Positions 29,503 to 45,689 of a stretch of 64,000 bases of DNA are shown here, in pieces. Position 1 is the first letter of the stretch, and the number at the start of each line of letters is the position of its first letter. This DNA comes from Candidatus Moraniibacteriota bacterium (lineage in GTDB: Bacteria; Patescibacteriota; Minisyncoccia; Moranbacterales; UBA11712). Location: contig JAUXSN010000026.1 of assembly GCA_030679895.1 (NCBI GenBank), forward strand, positions 24,661-88,660, given 5' to 3'. The notes under the pieces were generated by a model that worked only from the letters and a program-made list of their open reading frames with translations, made no database searches and had not been told where the DNA came from. The position numbers and the translations under genes were made by a program.

Positions 29503-29703
29503 ATGGAACAAGAATTATTGGATAAATTGAATCAAATGGAGCAAAAAGTCGAGGAAACCCGCGTTCTGGCGCAAAAAACCTATAAGCTTTTTCTTTGGAC
29601 AATGATCGCAACGGTTGTGATGTTTGTTTTGCCGCTTATCGCGCTGGCGATTGTCATTCCCTATTTCCTAAAAACTATCACTTCAGGACTCAACGGACTA
29701 TAA
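29503..29703 (+). CDS. Hypothetical small membrane protein (66 aa)
   Basis: ORF with a single TM helix; no SD. Confidence 0.3.
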   Translation: MEQELLDKLNQMEQKVEETRVLAQKTYKLFLWTMIATVVMFVLPLIALAIVIPYFLKTITSGLNGL

Positions 29704-31568: not shown

Positions 31569-32150
31569 ATGACAAAAAACATAATCAATATATCAAAATT
31601 AATTAGGTGCAATAAAATCGGTGTCATACCCACCGACACTATCTATGGCATCGTGGCTTCGGCGTGGTCGAAAAAAGCGGTTGCGCGAGCCTATAAAATA
31701 ATGGGGCGTGATCCCAAAAAACCTTTTATTATTCTCATCTCATCAATTGAAGATTTAGCCTTATTTAAGGTGAAAATAGACAATGCGACAAAAAATATTC
31801 TCAAAAAACTCTGGCCGGGAAAAATCAGTGTGGTTTTGCCAATTCCCTTCAAAAGATTCCAGTATCTCCATCGCGGAACAAAAACTCTTGCTTTTCGCGT
31901 TCCGAAAAAGCCCAGTTTGATAAAAATACTGAAATATTCCGGTCCGCTAATCTCAACTAGCGCCAATCCGCAAGGCTTGAAACCGGCTGCGACTATCACG
32001 GAAGCAAAAAAATATTTCGCGGATGAAATAGATTTTTATATCAATAACGGAAAAATGCCGCTTTTCCCTTCTACCCTGGTGGAGATTAAGCATAATAAGA
32101 TCGTCATTAAAAGAATAGGCGTTGGTAAGATACCCAATGAGCTGTTATAA
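31569..32150 (+). CDS. tsaC: L-threonylcarbamoyladenylate synthase (TsaC/YrdC family)
   Basis: IPTDTIYGIVA and SANPQG motifs; start set to the internal ATG (MTKNIINI...). Confidence 0.8.
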   Translation: MTKNIINISKLIRCNKIGVIPTDTIYGIVASAWSKKAVARAYKIMGRDPKKPFIILISSIEDLALFKVKIDNATKNILKKLWPGKISVVLPIPFKRFQYLHRGTKTLAFRVPKKPSLIKILKYSGPLISTSANPQGLKPAATITEAKKYFADEIDFYINNGKMPLFPSTLVEIKHNKIVIKRIGVGKIPNELL

Positions 32151-32223
32151 TCATCGAGGAAATAATTTTACTATCTCTGCGTATTAGATAAAGCCTAATA
32201 ATTAATAAGTTAACTTATATATT

Positions 32224-32346
32224 ATGGAAGACAAATGCCCAAACTGCGGCGAGCCTACGGAGAGCTGCAAGTGCGAATCGAGCGAAGAAAAATCCGGTTG
32301 CGATTGTTCCTGTTGCGGCCATCCGTGCGAACCGGAAGAAAAATAA
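32224..32346 (+). CDS. 40-aa cysteine-rich peptide (9 Cys; metallothionein-like or other Cys-rich small protein); not in the ORF track because it is under 60 aa
   Basis: MEDKCPNCGEPTESCKCESSEEKSGCDCSCCGHPCEPEEK, followed by a perfect terminator hairpin aaaaatcaacttcgcccgccgcgaagttgattttt (32356..32390). Confidence 0.45.
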   Translation: MEDKCPNCGEPTESCKCESSEEKSGCDCSCCGHPCEPEEK

Positions 32347-32423
32347 TCCCATTGCAAAAATCAACTTCGCCCGCCGCGAAGTTGATTTTTCGATACGATA
32401 ATTTGTCATGAGCAAAAAAACAG

Positions 32424-33152
32424 ATGCTTTACAATGTTAAATTATTTAGAAAATATCAAAATATTCAAGCTTTTTTCTCCCGAAAATCAGATAGTTCAAT
32501 GAAATTGACAAGCAATTCCCTTTTGAAAAAAAGAATATCCGCCAATCGAGAAGATTATTTCGTGAAAAATAACATCGATCCGAAAAATGTTGTTTCGGCA
32601 AAAATAGTTCATGAAAAGAAGCTTGCTGCTGTTCATGAAAAAGACAGCAGGAAAATTATATCAGGCGTTGATGGATTAATTACTCAAAATAAAAACATAT
32701 TTTTATCAATAACTTCAGCTGATTGCCTGCCGATTTTTTTGTTCGAGCCGGAAAAAGAAATTATCGGCATGATCCACGCCGGCTGGCGGAACCTGGAAAA
32801 AGGCATCGCATCCAATGCTGTCGAAAAAATTATTAAACTTGGCGGAAGACCGGAAAATATTTTGGTCGGGATTGGCCCCGCTATCTGCCAAAAACATTAT
32901 GAAGTCGGACTGGAGGTCGCGGAAAAATTCAAAAAATATCCCGAGGCGATAAAAAAAGAGGGTGGAAAAACATATCTGGACATAAAAAAAATCGCCCAGC
33001 TTCAGCTCTTGGAATTGGGAATAAGAAAAGGAAATATTGAAATTAGTTCTGAATGTACTTTTGAACTTCCTAAAAAATATTTTTCGGCGAGACGAGACAA
33101 ACCAAAGATAGTAGAAGCAATGATAGCAGTAATCGGAATGAAAAATACTTGA
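32424..33152 (+). CDS. pgeF: Peptidoglycan editing factor PgeF / YfiH (DUF152, laccase-domain) family
   Basis: SADCLPIF...HAGWRN motif pair; 242 aa. Confidence 0.75.
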   Translation: MLYNVKLFRKYQNIQAFFSRKSDSSMKLTSNSLLKKRISANREDYFVKNNIDPKNVVSAKIVHEKKLAAVHEKDSRKIISGVDGLITQNKNIFLSITSADCLPIFLFEPEKEIIGMIHAGWRNLEKGIASNAVEKIIKLGGRPENILVGIGPAICQKHYEVGLEVAEKFKKYPEAIKKEGGKTYLDIKKIAQLQLLELGIRKGNIEISSECTFELPKKYFSARRDKPKIVEAMIAVIGMKNT

Positions 33153-33417: not shown

Positions 33418-34707
33418 CTATCTATCCTTCCAGTTTTCCCTTCTTAATTTCTTGTGATAACTGATCGCGAAGCGGTGGGCTTCGTTTCGGATTCGCTCAA
33501 GCAATTTTTCGTCGCTCAATATCCGATTATACTTCTCTCTTATTTGCTCATTTCGACCGAGATATGTCAAGAGAAACTTTGACTGATAGACATCCAGTTT
33601 TTTTCGCGTCGGTCCTTTGGCAACTGCGATGACCGGGATATCCATTTTAAAATCCTTCAAAACGCTTTGCGCCATATTGAGATGCCCCTTTCCCCCATCA
33701 AGAAGAATTAGATCCGGTCTTGCCCAGTTATTTTTGAATCTCCTATATAATACTTCTCGCATCATGGCCACGTCATCAATTCCGGATACGGTTTTTATTT
33801 TGAACTTTCGGTATTCGTTTTTATCCTCCTTCCCATTTGTAAATACAACCATCGAGCCAACCGCGTAATCCCCGCCGATGTTTGAAATATCATAGGCTTC
33901 AATCCTGAATGGTTTTGGAAGTTTAGCTTCCATAATGGAAGCTAAACTTCCACTTCCACTATCCTCGGATATCAACACCACATCCCGAATATGCTCCAGA
34001 GCAAAGATCCGATTGCGCGTTTCAGCGGCTTTTTCGAATTCTCTTTTTTTGGAATAATCTTTCATTTCTTTTTCCAGTTTTCCAATCAAACTTTTTTTCT
34101 TGCCTTCAAGGATCATCTTCACTCCCCGAATATTTTTGAGATAATCTTTTTTCGAAATCGCGCCCGCGTACGGCCCCGGACATCTTCCGATCTGGAAATC
34201 GAAACAACATTGACTCGTCGCCCGCTTTGCGCTGTGAAACGGAAAAATTCTGCGGATGAGTTTCAAAGCAATATTCATTTGGTGCTTCGAGAGATACGGC
34301 CCGTATATTTTTTTCGCCGGTACTTTCCCCAGTTCCGTTTTCCAAAGGATCACCACCCGCGGAAATTTTTCTTTGGTGATCACAAAATAGCCGAAACTCT
34401 TGTCATCTTTCGCCATCACATTATATTTCGGCTGGTGTTTTTTGATGAGATTTGCTTCCAAAATCAGCGCTTCAAGAACCGAATCAGTTTCATGGATTTT
34501 AATGTCCGCAACTTGCAAAACCATCGGCTCAATATTCGGCCTGTCGAGGTGAAACCTCGACAGGAAATAACTCCCCACCCGATCCTTGAGACTCGTCGCT
34601 TTCCCAATATAAAGAATTTTCCCTTGCTTATCACGGAATTCGTACACGCCGGGGGATTTTGGAAGCTTATTTATGCTGTTTTTTGGGGCTTGGCTTGACA
34701 ATGGCAT
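33418..34707 (-). CDS. uvrC: Excinuclease ABC subunit C, short form lacking the C-terminal (HhH)2 domain
   Basis: GIY-YIG (GVYEFRDKQGKILYIGKATSLKDRV), UvrBC-interaction and RNase H-like endonuclease regions; only 429 aa. Confidence 0.8.
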   Translation of the reverse strand: MPLSSQAPKNSINKLPKSPGVYEFRDKQGKILYIGKATSLKDRVGSYFLSRFHLDRPNIEPMVLQVADIKIHETDSVLEALILEANLIKKHQPKYNVMAKDDKSFGYFVITKEKFPRVVILWKTELGKVPAKKIYGPYLSKHQMNIALKLIRRIFPFHSAKRATSQCCFDFQIGRCPGPYAGAISKKDYLKNIRGVKMILEGKKKSLIGKLEKEMKDYSKKREFEKAAETRNRIFALEHIRDVVLISEDSGSGSLASIMEAKLPKPFRIEAYDISNIGGDYAVGSMVVFTNGKEDKNEYRKFKIKTVSGIDDVAMMREVLYRRFKNNWARPDLILLDGGKGHLNMAQSVLKDFKMDIPVIAVAKGPTRKKLDVYQSKFLLTYLGRNEQIREKYNRILSDEKLLERIRNEAHRFAISYHKKLRRENWKDR

Positions 34708-43148: not shown

Positions 43149-45689
43149 TTACAGCGGTTTTTCTCCCATATCGAATGCGTCAGCCGTGGCCGGCGTGGCG
43201 ATATAGCTCGCCTTTTTCATTATCTCTGCATTCACTATATCACGGCTGCGTCCATATTTCAACTTGGAAAGTTCTTTGATGGCTTCCGCCACTTTGGGAT
43301 TGCCCTTTGTCGGCGGATAGGTTTTCATATTGAACGGCGTTGCCACCTGGCTGTTGATCAGAAGCTTCATGAAACAATTGCGGTTATCCACGTTCATCAG
43401 ATCATTCGCGTCGAACACCGGCTCAAATTGCTTCTGCACAAATTCGGCGTCTTCCGCTCCGATCCGGAAGGAACAAATGGATCCGACGTTTCCAAAAACG
43501 GCTTTCGAAATTTCTTCTTTGAGCTGGGCAATGAATTGATGGGCGATAATGAGCGCCAAGCGGTATTTTCGGGCTTCCGAAAGGATCTGGGAGATCGAAT
43601 CGGTGGTGAAGTTCTGGAATTCGTCGATATAGAGATAGAAGTCTTTGCGTTCCGCTTCCGGCATATCCACCCGGGAAAGAGCGGCAATCAGAATTTTTCC
43701 GACAATCACCATTCCGAGAAGATTGGCGTTTATTTCACCGATTTTCCCCTTTGAAAGATTGACGAGAACAATTTGCTGGTCATCCATCGCCCGGCGGAAA
43801 TTCACCGTCGTCTTTTCCTGGGCGATAATCGGCCGCATCATATCGTTCGATATAAACTGCGTGAGTTTCGAGGTGATATAGGGAACCATATTCGCCAGCG
43901 CCGCCTCTCCGCCCGCTTTTTCGGCTTCCTTTTCCCAAAAATTCTTCACAATCGGGTTAGAGCAATAAGAAAGCTTCATGTGCCGGAATTCCTCATCGGC
44001 CAAAACCCTCGGGATCTCCATCAGGGTCGAACCTGATTCCGGATGCTCCATCACCAGAAGCGCCGCGTTTCGCATATATTGCTCGAACATCGGACCGCCG
44101 GTTTGCTTCAAATCATAAAGCTTGTCGAAAATATTGATGATTTCATTGATGACAAAAGTTTTTTGTTCCGGTTTATTGGTATCATACTCGAGCATATTGA
44201 GCCCGAAGGGGCGCTCCATATCCGCCGGGTCGAAATATATGACGTCTTCCGCCCGCTCTTTCGGAACGCATTCGATCACGTGTTCGACAAATTCGCCGTG
44301 AGGATCGATGACGCAAACGCCCCGACCGTTCTTGATGTCTTGCTTGACCATTTCTTCCATCATTGTTGATTTACCGGTTCCCGTCTGCCCGACGATATAG
44401 AAATGGCGGCGGCGGTCGTCATCATCGTGATGGATGACTGTTTCCACTCCCCGGTAATCATTGAATCCCAGAATTATTCCTTCTTTGGAAATATTCGGCG
44501 GCGGCGCGGCCGTCCGGGCCTTGAGCCAGGCAATTTTGGGAGTTTCCGTCGAAAAGAGCGGAAAATGGAAGATGCTGGATATTTCTTCCGAAGAAAGCAC
44601 GAAGCTTTGCTCGTTTTTGAAATTGCGGAAAATGAAATCGAAAGCGATTTTTTTCTCTTTTTTCTGATTTTCTCTCACAACCTTGAAGCCGTTTATACTC
44701 GGATTTTCGTACTGGATAAAAGCATTTTCCAGTTCCGCGAGAACTGCTTCGGCTCTTTCCTTGCTTAGGGCCGAGGATACCAGCCTGATGTTTGCGCTAA
44801 AACCGGGCTTATTAGCTTTTCCTTCAATTTTTTTGACAATTTCCTGCTCTTCCGGAGTGAGTTGGATAGTTTCCTTATCGGATTTAAAAACATCCCTTTT
44901 CTGGTCCTCGTTCTTTTTGACCATTACATTGAAAAATCCGCGGAAAAATTGCCGGAAAGGCGTGTCGCGTTTTACGTCGGAGAGGCGCCTCCCCTGCTGC
45001 ATTTTGTGGGCAATTTCCCTTCCCTTGCTCCTCCAATCTCCGCGGGCAGGCTTCACGAGCAGCTGGATGGCCGCCCCTTCTTTTTTTTCATCAAACTTTC
45101 CCAGAACATTGGTAATGTTGTTGAGCGGATCGGATTCCAAAGTTTGGTACGTGCGAAGCGGAAGACAATCTTTTTCCCGAAGTTTCAAATACGAAGCGGC
45201 AGTGAAGCTTCCCGGATAAAATATATTGTAGTCTTTCACGCGTTCAATGGCCGCTTTCGGATAAAAACTGTGAATTTGTCTTTCGACAATCTCAATAAAT
45301 TTTTTTGGAGCTCCCACATAGAAAGAAATTTCATCGTTTTCAGCCGGGTTGGAAATTTCCAGCGCGATCACCGCGTCGCCATAAATTATCCTGTGCCAAA
45401 GACCCGCTTTTTCTTTTATGTTTCCGAGGCTGGCGAAGAGATGCTCCATAACAGCGATTATCTCTTTTTCCGGCTTGGGCTGCTGTTGTTGCTGCTGGGA
45501 TGATTGCGATTGAGTTTTGAGAGAATGGCTGACCTTCACAACATCGATATCCATATTCAAAGAGCGGGTAATTTGTCCCTTGAATATGGTGAAGCTTCGA
45601 AAAATCATCCATCCGCCGGATATGAAACTAGCCAGAGCCAGAAGGCCAGCCAGCGGATAAAGTATTAAATTGAGGTTATAGGCGTCCAT
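43149..45689 (-). CDS. VirB4/TraC/TrbE-family (FtsK-HerA superfamily) secretion or conjugation-type ATPase with an N-terminal TM helix
   Basis: 846 aa; Walker A HFYIVGQTGTGKST...VIDPHGEF near aa 425; Walker B FYLYIDEFQNF; RKYRLALIIAHQF motif; VirB4-like domain order (large N-domain, ATPase in the C-terminal half). Confidence 0.6.
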   Translation of the reverse strand: MDAYNLNLILYPLAGLLALASFISGGWMIFRSFTIFKGQITRSLNMDIDVVKVSHSLKTQSQSSQQQQQQPKPEKEIIAVMEHLFASLGNIKEKAGLWHRIIYGDAVIALEISNPAENDEISFYVGAPKKFIEIVERQIHSFYPKAAIERVKDYNIFYPGSFTAASYLKLREKDCLPLRTYQTLESDPLNNITNVLGKFDEKKEGAAIQLLVKPARGDWRSKGREIAHKMQQGRRLSDVKRDTPFRQFFRGFFNVMVKKNEDQKRDVFKSDKETIQLTPEEQEIVKKIEGKANKPGFSANIRLVSSALSKERAEAVLAELENAFIQYENPSINGFKVVRENQKKEKKIAFDFIFRNFKNEQSFVLSSEEISSIFHFPLFSTETPKIAWLKARTAAPPPNISKEGIILGFNDYRGVETVIHHDDDDRRRHFYIVGQTGTGKSTMMEEMVKQDIKNGRGVCVIDPHGEFVEHVIECVPKERAEDVIYFDPADMERPFGLNMLEYDTNKPEQKTFVINEIINIFDKLYDLKQTGGPMFEQYMRNAALLVMEHPESGSTLMEIPRVLADEEFRHMKLSYCSNPIVKNFWEKEAEKAGGEAALANMVPYITSKLTQFISNDMMRPIIAQEKTTVNFRRAMDDQQIVLVNLSKGKIGEINANLLGMVIVGKILIAALSRVDMPEAERKDFYLYIDEFQNFTTDSISQILSEARKYRLALIIAHQFIAQLKEEISKAVFGNVGSICSFRIGAEDAEFVQKQFEPVFDANDLMNVDNRNCFMKLLINSQVATPFNMKTYPPTKGNPKVAEAIKELSKLKYGRSRDIVNAEIMKKASYIATPATADAFDMGEKPL

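Follow-up and report, generated by a model that had tools for sequence, protein, structure and literature searches.

Few unrelated families of bacterial metallothioneins are known (SmtA/BmtA, MymT), and in SmtA the metal cluster is Zn4Cys9His2. PflQ2MT, a metallothionein from Pseudomonas, forms a Zn3Cys9His cluster; the function of just two bacterial metallothioneins had been studied, and MymT of Mycobacterium tuberculosis is mentioned as a bacterial metallothionein (PMC7387436). The small CPxCG-related zinc fingers are defined as proteins of fewer than 100 amino acids (aa) with a CPxCG-like pattern and a second Cys/His pattern 7 to 40 residues away, and iron-sulfur proteins are known contaminants of searches for this class (Tarasov et al. 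2008, PMC2253796). Here, we describe a small gene for a 40-aa peptide with nine cysteines, located at positions 32224 to 32346 of a 64,000-nucleotide (nt) stretch of contig JAUXSN010000026.1 (Candidatus Moraniibacteriota bacterium, GenBank assembly GCA_030679895.1), hereafter the window. The gene is almost certainly real and protein coding, with strong purifying selection in its sense frame. Its product very likely binds metal through conserved Cys and His residues, and it may represent a metallothionein family of its own.

As had been predicted from the letters of the window, the open reading frame (ORF) translates exactly as a 40-residue peptide, MEDKCPNCGEPTESCKCESSEEKSGCDCSCCGHPCEPEEK, with Cys at positions 5, 8, 15, 17, 26, 28, 30, 31, and 35 in the spacing CxxC, CxC, CxCxCC, C and a single His at position 33. 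The peptide (E9 C9 S5 K4 P4 G3 D2 M1 N1 T1 H1) is 22.5% Cys, has 11 acidic versus 4 basic residues for a net charge of about -7, and holds no aliphatic or aromatic residue after Met1; a single Phe is present in some homologues. Predicted tryptic peptides include CPNCGEPTESCK and SGCDCSCCGHPCEPEEK. The original prediction called the gene unannotated, which is true of an ORF list with a 60-aa cutoff but not of GenBank, where an identical protein is already deposited (MDP1845557.1, "hypothetical protein Q8L09_02300") from a Candidatus Moranbacteria metagenome-assembled genome (MAG). The window has 174 ATG-started six-frame ORFs of 30 to 60 aa; their Cys fraction has a median of 0.02 and exceeds 0.10 in only two, this gene and one evidently spurious ORF. 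The latter (45418-45513, + strand) has 31 aa and seven Cys, including a CCCCC run; it lies antisense inside an 846-aa gene (43149-45689, - strand) and is most probably spurious. Chance is excluded far more strongly by conservation across genomes than by this count of Cys fractions. No paralogue of the small gene occurs in the window.

With duplicates removed, the homologues represent 17 loci that differ in DNA and 18 different peptide sequences. Three genuine loci came from species-representative genomes, 14 from metagenomes, and one from an exact-protein look-up before deduplication; the DNA searches used back-translated conserved stretches as the query. A full HMMER scan of 1.84 billion representative proteins returned a single relative, and a collection of 5.8 billion protein clusters returned five matching clusters. 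All protein-level relatives are 40-41 aa "hypothetical proteins" from MAGs of the type of the Candidate Phyla Radiation (CPR), and no relatives were found among viral contigs. The protein searches gave five clusters and the DNA searches 17 loci; most copies have never been called as genes. The family is narrow, belonging to Moranbacteria-like ultra-small (CPR) bacteria.

At all 17 homologous loci, the ORF is intact, starts with ATG, spans 37 to 48 aa, and keeps a stop codon. The original prediction had named the finding that would overturn it, namely, relatives with stops or frameshifts in this frame and conservation in another. No such locus was found: the sense frame is free of stops and frameshifts at every homologous locus, and it is the third sense positions that vary most. 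Over the 16 loci used for substitution statistics, the mean pairwise difference at codon positions 1, 2, and 3 is 0.169, 0.153, and 0.408, and the median ratio of nonsynonymous to synonymous substitution rates (dN/dS) is 0.13, with dS at or past saturation. In a pairwise DNA alignment, the ORF is about 80% identical and its flanks are unalignable. The overlapping antisense ORF described in the same prediction is indeed present, with 66 aa and a TTG start, and it also covers the terminator hairpin of the small gene. Although this frame and the +2 frame are often stop-free, the phase of substitution rules both out as coding, because the most variable sense position (0.41) falls on position 1 of the antisense frame and on position 2 of the +2 frame.

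One candidate homologue (L005) was rejected, as it has only the nonapeptide GCDCSCCGH in common with the family, within a 1206-aa protein. In that protein, the nonapeptide (L005:4300-4326) lies about 30 residues past an HExxH-like HEACGH; it may have arisen by convergence as a metal-binding element, or by chance. The labels of two homologous contigs also deserve mention. Contig DATGZC010000088.1 (L001/L003) is labelled "Candidatus Bathyarchaeia archaeon" and carries a bacterial Sua5 (about 63% identical to that of the window) and uvrC in Moranbacteria-like synteny, so that it is probably mis-binned. The contig of P0003 (HUD08828.1) is labelled "Candidatus Saccharimonadales", a label that we doubt solely from its peptide, which is about 68% identical to that of the window.

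Selection falls chiefly on eight Cys residues and a single His. Residues M1, K4, C5, C8, G9, C15, C17, C28, C31, H33, and C35 are invariant in all 18 peptides, and C26 is replaced by Gly in a single lineage (L020), in which C30 is retained. Of the 16 analyzed loci, 7 have Cys at position 30, 8 have His, and 1 has Ser; extra His residues have been gained and lost at positions 25 and 27 across homologues, and Cys and His together number at least 9 in every sequence. The ratio of nonsynonymous to synonymous differences (pN/pS) is 0.059 at the ligand (Cys/His) codons versus 0.37 at the other codons, values with which the metal-binding peptide suggested by the original prediction would agree well. 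The ligands form two knuckles, C5-P-x-C8-G and C28-x-x-C31-G-H33, plus two CxC pairs (C15/C17 and C26/C28). An AlphaFold2 model built from a five-sequence alignment, with a moderate predicted local distance difference test (pLDDT) score of 68, places strands at residues 15-17 and 26-28 between the knuckles.

Metal binding is argued for by the invariance of Cys and His, the low pN/pS at ligand codons, the Cys-rich composition devoid of a core, and weak database matches to zinc knuckles. The Cys/His switch at position 30 is a ligand-for-ligand swap, which further supports metal ligation. A peptide without a hydrophobic core must have a metal-nucleated fold, as is familiar from zinc fingers and metallothioneins; this peptide, having no aliphatic or aromatic residues to build such a core, would need metal nucleation for any fold. 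Any bound metal would probably be zinc.

Searches of Pfam and NCBIfam with the window peptide gave nothing above threshold, and neither did Pfam searches with all 15 aligned members. A profile search of the PDB returned matches to knuckles and zinc ribbons only: the best of the sub-threshold ones was the archaeal ribosomal protein aS34 (E = 0.04), with Nop10, eS27, DUF1610 (HVO_2753; 6ydh_A, E = 2.6), LIM, and CDGSH at E = 0.3 to 3, and Zn_ribbon_NUD was also among the weak zinc-ribbon matches. Designed C2H2 fingers gave two low PDB E-values and were discarded as homologues, since these values stem from repeated KCPxCG. Judged by sequence, the product of the small gene belongs to no described protein family and is a new family in a familiar kind, the small Cys-rich metal-binding proteins. 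A literature search found no paper joining metallothionein and Candidate Phyla Radiation.

The boldest reading, to which we assign a probability of roughly 35%, is that the small gene represents a previously unrecognized, lineage-specific metallothionein family of CPR bacteria. At about 40 aa it would be the smallest bacterial one so far, with a Cys8-9His1-3 cluster nucleated by paired zinc-ribbon knuckles and no kinship to SmtA/BmtA or MymT, and it would serve as a zinc (or copper) buffer of minimal-genome organisms, possibly controlled via a conserved palindromic or AT-rich element upstream of the start. Our favored reading is less far-reaching. In it, the gene would be transcribed alone, from a candidate extended -10 promoter (32143-32151) to its own intrinsic terminator, and translated with an obligatory AUG from an unstructured, AU-rich leader that lacks a Shine-Dalgarno (SD) sequence. 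Unable to fold alone, the peptide would be organized by metal ions held on its thiolates. In the likeliest arrangement, the two knuckles would pair on either side of a short beta-hairpin, much as they do in zinc ribbons, with C15/C17, C26/C28, C35, H33, and the Cys or His at position 30 as further ligands, some of them probably bridging. The 8 to 9 Cys and 1 to 3 His could then accommodate two or three Zn(II) ions or a larger number of Cu(I) ions, and the peptide would act much like a metallothionein in the cytoplasm of a reduced-genome CPR bacterium, buffering or donating zinc (or another thiophilic metal). Binding to nucleic acids is improbable given the net charge of the peptide.

The chances that the peptide acts by metallothionein-like buffering rather than as a partner-binding zinc finger seem to us to fall a little short of even. 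Buffering is favored over a rigid finger by the presence of two CxC motifs and one CC motif, by the plasticity of the ligand set, with its spare or variable ligands at positions 25, 27, and 30, and by the Cys9His count, which equals that of the Zn3Cys9His cluster of PflQ2MT (PMC7387436). The peptide also has the traits by which metallothioneins are recognized operationally, that is, low molecular weight with high Cys content (9 Cys in 40 aa), CxC, CxxC, and CC motifs, and the lack of any aromatic or aliphatic residue after Met1. By profile comparison, it is nonetheless not a member of the BmtA/SmtA family. The term "metallothionein-like" in the original prediction was therefore apt for the composition but overstated as to kinship, there being no sequence relationship to the bacterial metallothionein family.

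Several results weigh against a metallothionein. None of the 15 members matches PF02069 at E <= 10, and no metallothionein chain is found among the PDB profile hits at E <= 10. The CPxCG/CxxCG knuckles, with the Gly conserved in both, are typical of structural zinc ribbons and rubredoxins rather than of metallothioneins. Constraint at non-ligand codons (pN/pS of 0.37), visible in the conserved blocks MEDK, PMES, and SDEKES and in the PEEEK tail, exceeds what a pure chelator would need and hints at a specific partner. Comparison of the structure model, with its pLDDT of only 68, with known folds returned no significant structural neighbors. In addition, no metal-homeostasis gene (Zur/Fur, ZnuABC, or P-type ATPase) lies within about 15 kb of the small gene in the window, and none was recognized beside the homologues from Pfam hits of called genes and ORF translations.

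A somewhat less likely alternative is that the peptide is instead a structural double zinc-finger micro-protein. Two fixed zinc sites, of the Zn(Cys)4 or Zn(Cys)3His type, would fold such a protein into a rigid, zinc-ribbon-like module, and its acidic surface would bind a specific, probably basic, protein partner, making it a small regulator or subunit and not a metal store. The eight invariant or near-invariant Cys would suffice for two tetrahedral sites, yet the ligand set is not fixed: position 30 may be Cys, His, or Ser, C26 has been lost once, and the His residues at 25 and 27 are variable. The knuckles fall within the class definition of Tarasov et al. (PMC2253796), with CPNCG at 5-9 and CSCCG at 28-32, 19 residues between them, and both conserved in the family, and a hairpin is predicted between them; CxC and CC, however, are unusual for zinc ribbons. 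The best database matches, weak as they are, are likewise to zinc ribbons (aS34, Nop10, DUF1610/HVO_2753, and Zn_ribbon_NUD), but no fold is matched significantly. Conservation of the non-ligand residues and the acidic tail would suit a partner-binding protein, although no partner gene is co-inherited: the upstream neighbor varies between Sua5, a membrane protein, and IMP dehydrogenase (IMPDH), and uvrC is convergent.

An iron or iron-sulfur redox protein appears improbable. Here, the peptide would carry a rubredoxin- or desulforedoxin-like Fe(Cys)4 center, or a Cys3His [2Fe-2S] center, and would transfer electrons in a CPR bacterium living anaerobically. Acidity, a length of about 50 residues, and CxxCG and CPxCG knuckles are features of rubredoxins, but the aromatic core residues that define these proteins are absent, the window peptide having no aromatic residue at all. 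Rubredoxin was among the non-significant Foldseek hits, and the C-x-C...C-G-H segment drew weak matches to CDGSH [2Fe-2S] profiles (E = 0.5-1.3); in contrast, no rubredoxin, ferredoxin, or CDGSH model of Pfam was matched at E <= 10, and the C-x-C-x2-C-x-H spacing is unlike the CDGSH motif. The contamination of CPxCG searches by iron-sulfur proteins (PMC2253796) also has to be kept in mind, but the number of Cys is twice that needed for one such center, and no redox partner gene lies nearby in the window.

The original prediction offered as its second possibility the precursor of a ribosomally synthesized and post-translationally modified peptide (RiPP). Such a product might be, for example, a thioether-crosslinked, SCIFF- or ranthipeptide-like peptide matured by an enzyme encoded elsewhere in the genome. 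This we regard as very improbable. The gene is short, Cys-rich, and apparently separately transcribed, and a distant maturase could lie beyond the 64-kb window. The prediction itself had remarked that no maturase gene is adjacent, and we found no radical-SAM, YcaO, lanthipeptide, or other maturase gene, and no protease or exporter gene, within about 15 kb in the window; none was recognized beside the homologues either, as read from Pfam hits of called genes and from ORF translations without a systematic scan. NCBIfam, which holds precursor models, gave no match. Conservation runs uniformly along the whole length, from M1-K4 to the C-terminal PEE(E)K, with no leader/core split, variable core, or cleavage motif, and the His residue and the Cys-to-His exchanges indicate metal ligation, not crosslinking. 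Least credible of all is that the Cys-rich frame is open by chance and the conserved element is instead a small RNA, or an ORF in the antisense or +2 frame, for although those two frames are stop-free at many loci and an SD sequence is absent, the period and phase of substitution fit the sense frame only, changes at ligand positions are conservative (Cys to His), the ATG and stop are maintained at all loci, there is no Rfam match and little folding signal, and many genes of the same genome also lack an SD sequence.

The small gene is followed by the terminator with a perfect 15-bp stem that had been ascribed to it, and this feature stands up well. The hairpin, whose arms are 32356-32370 and 32376-32390, starts nine bases past the stop codon and has a predicted energy of -23.1 kcal/mol (z = -7.5), with none of 200 shuffled sequences as stable. 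Its outer five stem pairs form an A5/T5 tract, leaving a 10-bp GC-containing stem with a U tract behind it and an A tract upstream. This is the form of a two-way intrinsic terminator, which could stop transcription from both sides. By the description of a Rho-independent terminator as a GC-rich stem-loop with a U tract just past the stop, the small gene is predicted to have one, and in 15 of the 16 evaluable loci an own GC-rich hairpin and U tract lie 1 to 33 nt past the stop, with unrelated stem sequences. The function of the terminator thus appears to be conserved and its sequence not. In one metagenomic variant (L012:987-1133), the stop is lost and the ORF reads 7 codons further into the 5' arm of the hairpin, for a total of 48 aa, which indicates that the C-terminal tail tolerates extension.

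At its other end, the small gene is preceded by a candidate promoter that overlaps the stop codon of the upstream Sua5/TsaC gene, with an extended -10 element at 32143-32151 (hexamer 32146-32151). The block TGnTATAAT-CATCGRGGAAATAATTT also precedes the small ORF in L009 and L020, two loci with other, divergently oriented genes upstream. This recurrence supports a separate promoter for the gene and a leader about 66 nt long. No SD-like motif precedes the ATG at any locus; in a crude and noisy ORF-based survey of start sites, several clear genes of the same genome, such as uvrA, also lacked one. A riboswitch or other structured leader was ruled out, since the leader matches no Rfam family and in the window is less structured than shuffled sequence (z = +1.5).

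Two further elements lie just upstream of the start. In the window, a perfect 14-bp palindrome, ATAAGTTAACTTAT, spans 32205-32218 and ends 6 nt before the start codon. It occurs once in the window, which is uninformative as a regulon search, and its GTTAAC core and an imperfect 16-bp symmetry are retained in L009 and L020; it could be a repressor site. At eight loci (L002, L010, and L013-L018), an invariant motif, TnAATAT, precedes the ATG at a distance of about 11-13 nt; it takes the form TAAATATT or TTAATATT and is often part of a palindrome, TTAATATTAA. Because it is kept in differing phases inside the coding end or stop of Sua5, and also in non-coding DNA, the motif appears to be a DNA or RNA signal, possibly the -10 element of a near-leaderless (very short-leader) transcript or an operator.

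Table 1. Features of the small-gene locus, with positions in the window and the order of the surrounding genes.
Feature	Position	Strand	Gene order	Remarks
Coding sequence, 40-aa Cys9His peptide (small gene)	32224..32346	+	5	Stop included; ATG start, TAA stop; between Sua5/TsaC and YfiH
Antisense ORF, 66 aa	32215..32415	-		TTG start; judged not a gene
Candidate promoter	32122..32151	+		TTGGTA, 18-nt spacer, extended -10 TGtTATAAT; consensus scan 10/12 matches + TG
AU-rich 5' leader, about 66 nt, predicted	32158..32223	+		No Shine-Dalgarno sequence; transcription start predicted
Intrinsic terminator hairpin, predicted	32356..32390	+		15-bp perfect stem, loop CCGCC, A tract 5', T tract 3'
PMT_2 glycosyltransferase		+	1	Pfam
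66-aa membrane protein	29503-29703	+	2	No Pfam match
IMP dehydrogenase		-	3	Pfam
Sua5/TsaC		+	4	Pfam; directly upstream of the small gene
YfiH/Cu-oxidase_4 (YfiH/PgeF-type)	32424-33152	+	6	Pfam
uvrC, uvrA, uvrB	33418-34707 (uvrC)	-	7 onward	Pfam; contiguous

The genes around the small gene in the window are listed in Table 1; Obg and DnaX are also among its neighbors there, and the homologous loci are surrounded by comparable genes. The upstream neighbor is Sua5 at 9 of the 17 loci, with 59-73% identity among the Sua5 proteins, and elsewhere is a membrane protein, a divergent IMPDH, or another gene. We rejected functional coupling to Sua5/TsaC because 8 of the 17 loci have a different gene or none upstream. 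The commonest and most persistent neighbor is uvrC, and coupling to it was likewise ruled out, since it and the small gene are convergent. The context thus indicates no more than that the small gene stands alone in a housekeeping region of a narrow Moranbacteria-like clade.

Some neighbors merit a closer look. In L017 (1418-1498) and L010 (1360-1458), both without an upstream Sua5/TsaC, a relic of about 60-95 nt still shows homology to the Sua5 3' end (compared with L018:2881-3000). The ancestral order was probably tsaC followed by the small gene, and deletions that stop short of the last ~80 bp of Sua5 are what would be expected if the promoter of the small gene sits there. The 66-aa membrane protein, MEQELLDKLNQMEQKVEETRVLAQKTYKLFLWTM... 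(also at L002:4212-4412), is conserved, travels with the same neighborhood, and in the absence of Sua5 is the immediate upstream neighbor of the small gene. Downstream, on the same strand and beyond the terminator, a YfiH/PgeF-type gene is found in the window, in L009 (3996-4724), and in L020 (1167-1886), the three loci with the TGnTATAAT block; in L009, a Nudix-like ORF precedes it. Co-expression of the YfiH-type gene with the small gene by read-through is possible. The UvrC proteins of the clade, where complete, have only 413-439 aa (in the window and in L001, L004, L006, and others); Pfam finds their GIY-YIG, UVR, and RNase H-like endonuclease domains but not the C-terminal helix-hairpin-helix domain.

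If the peptide is a metallothionein, this would be a third independent metallothionein family, from minimal-genome bacteria whose metal homeostasis is essentially unknown, and of interest to metallobiologists; at 40 residues, the peptide is within reach of chemical synthesis. If the peptide is only a structural zinc-finger micro-protein, it would be nothing out of the ordinary in a class that is large and little understood. The finding is not surprising in kind and is of modest interest for the metal biology of CPR bacteria and for small-ORF annotation, where it offers a clean case of a strongly selected gene below the usual ORF cutoffs.

How does the family compare with the systems described to date? 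Like BmtA/SmtA (PF02069, which includes PflQ2MT), the peptide is small, cytoplasmic, and Cys-rich, with a His taking part in metal binding, which is predicted for our peptide. Its ligand inventory comes near those of PflQ2MT and SmtA, with Cys9His in the window peptide and Cys8-9His2-3 in most relatives, and BmtA/SmtA already shows that a metallothionein can be founded on a knuckle resembling that of a zinc finger. There is, however, no detectable sequence relationship: the window peptide has 40 aa versus about 55-80 aa, is strongly acidic, and spaces its Cys differently. SmtA has an aromatic/hydrophobic mini-core and a helix, and the window peptide is without them. MymT, a Cu(I) metallothionein, is likewise lineage restricted, about 50 aa long, Cys-rich, unrelated to SmtA, and was discovered as a small ORF. 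It is copper induced and binds up to about six Cu(I), and it has no sequence similarity to our peptide in any search.

The small CPxCG proteins, such as Brz of Halobacterium and HVO_2753/DUF1610 of Haloferax, resemble the peptide in having fewer than 100 aa and no further domain, and they are often acidic and often missed by gene callers, as here; the class is an operational one, defined by a motif and not by homology or evolution. In most members, each finger has four ligands and there is a small hydrophobic core, whereas the peptide has no core and carries four more conserved Cys, arranged in two CxC pairs that lie between the knuckles and beyond them. The characterized members are archaeal regulators, and our family is confined to CPR bacteria. 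The N-terminal C-x2-C-x6-C of the peptide is also, we presume, identical to the first half of the Zn2Cys6 motif of fungal Gal4-type factors, in which about 30 residues hold two Zn via bridging cysteines. Gal4 modules, however, are basic, bind DNA, and form part of large eukaryotic proteins, and the second half of their motif is unlike that of the peptide. What distinguishes the family from all of these systems is the combination of extra CxC pairs between the knuckles, the absence of a hydrophobic core, acidity, a size of 40 aa, and restriction to a clade of the CPR.

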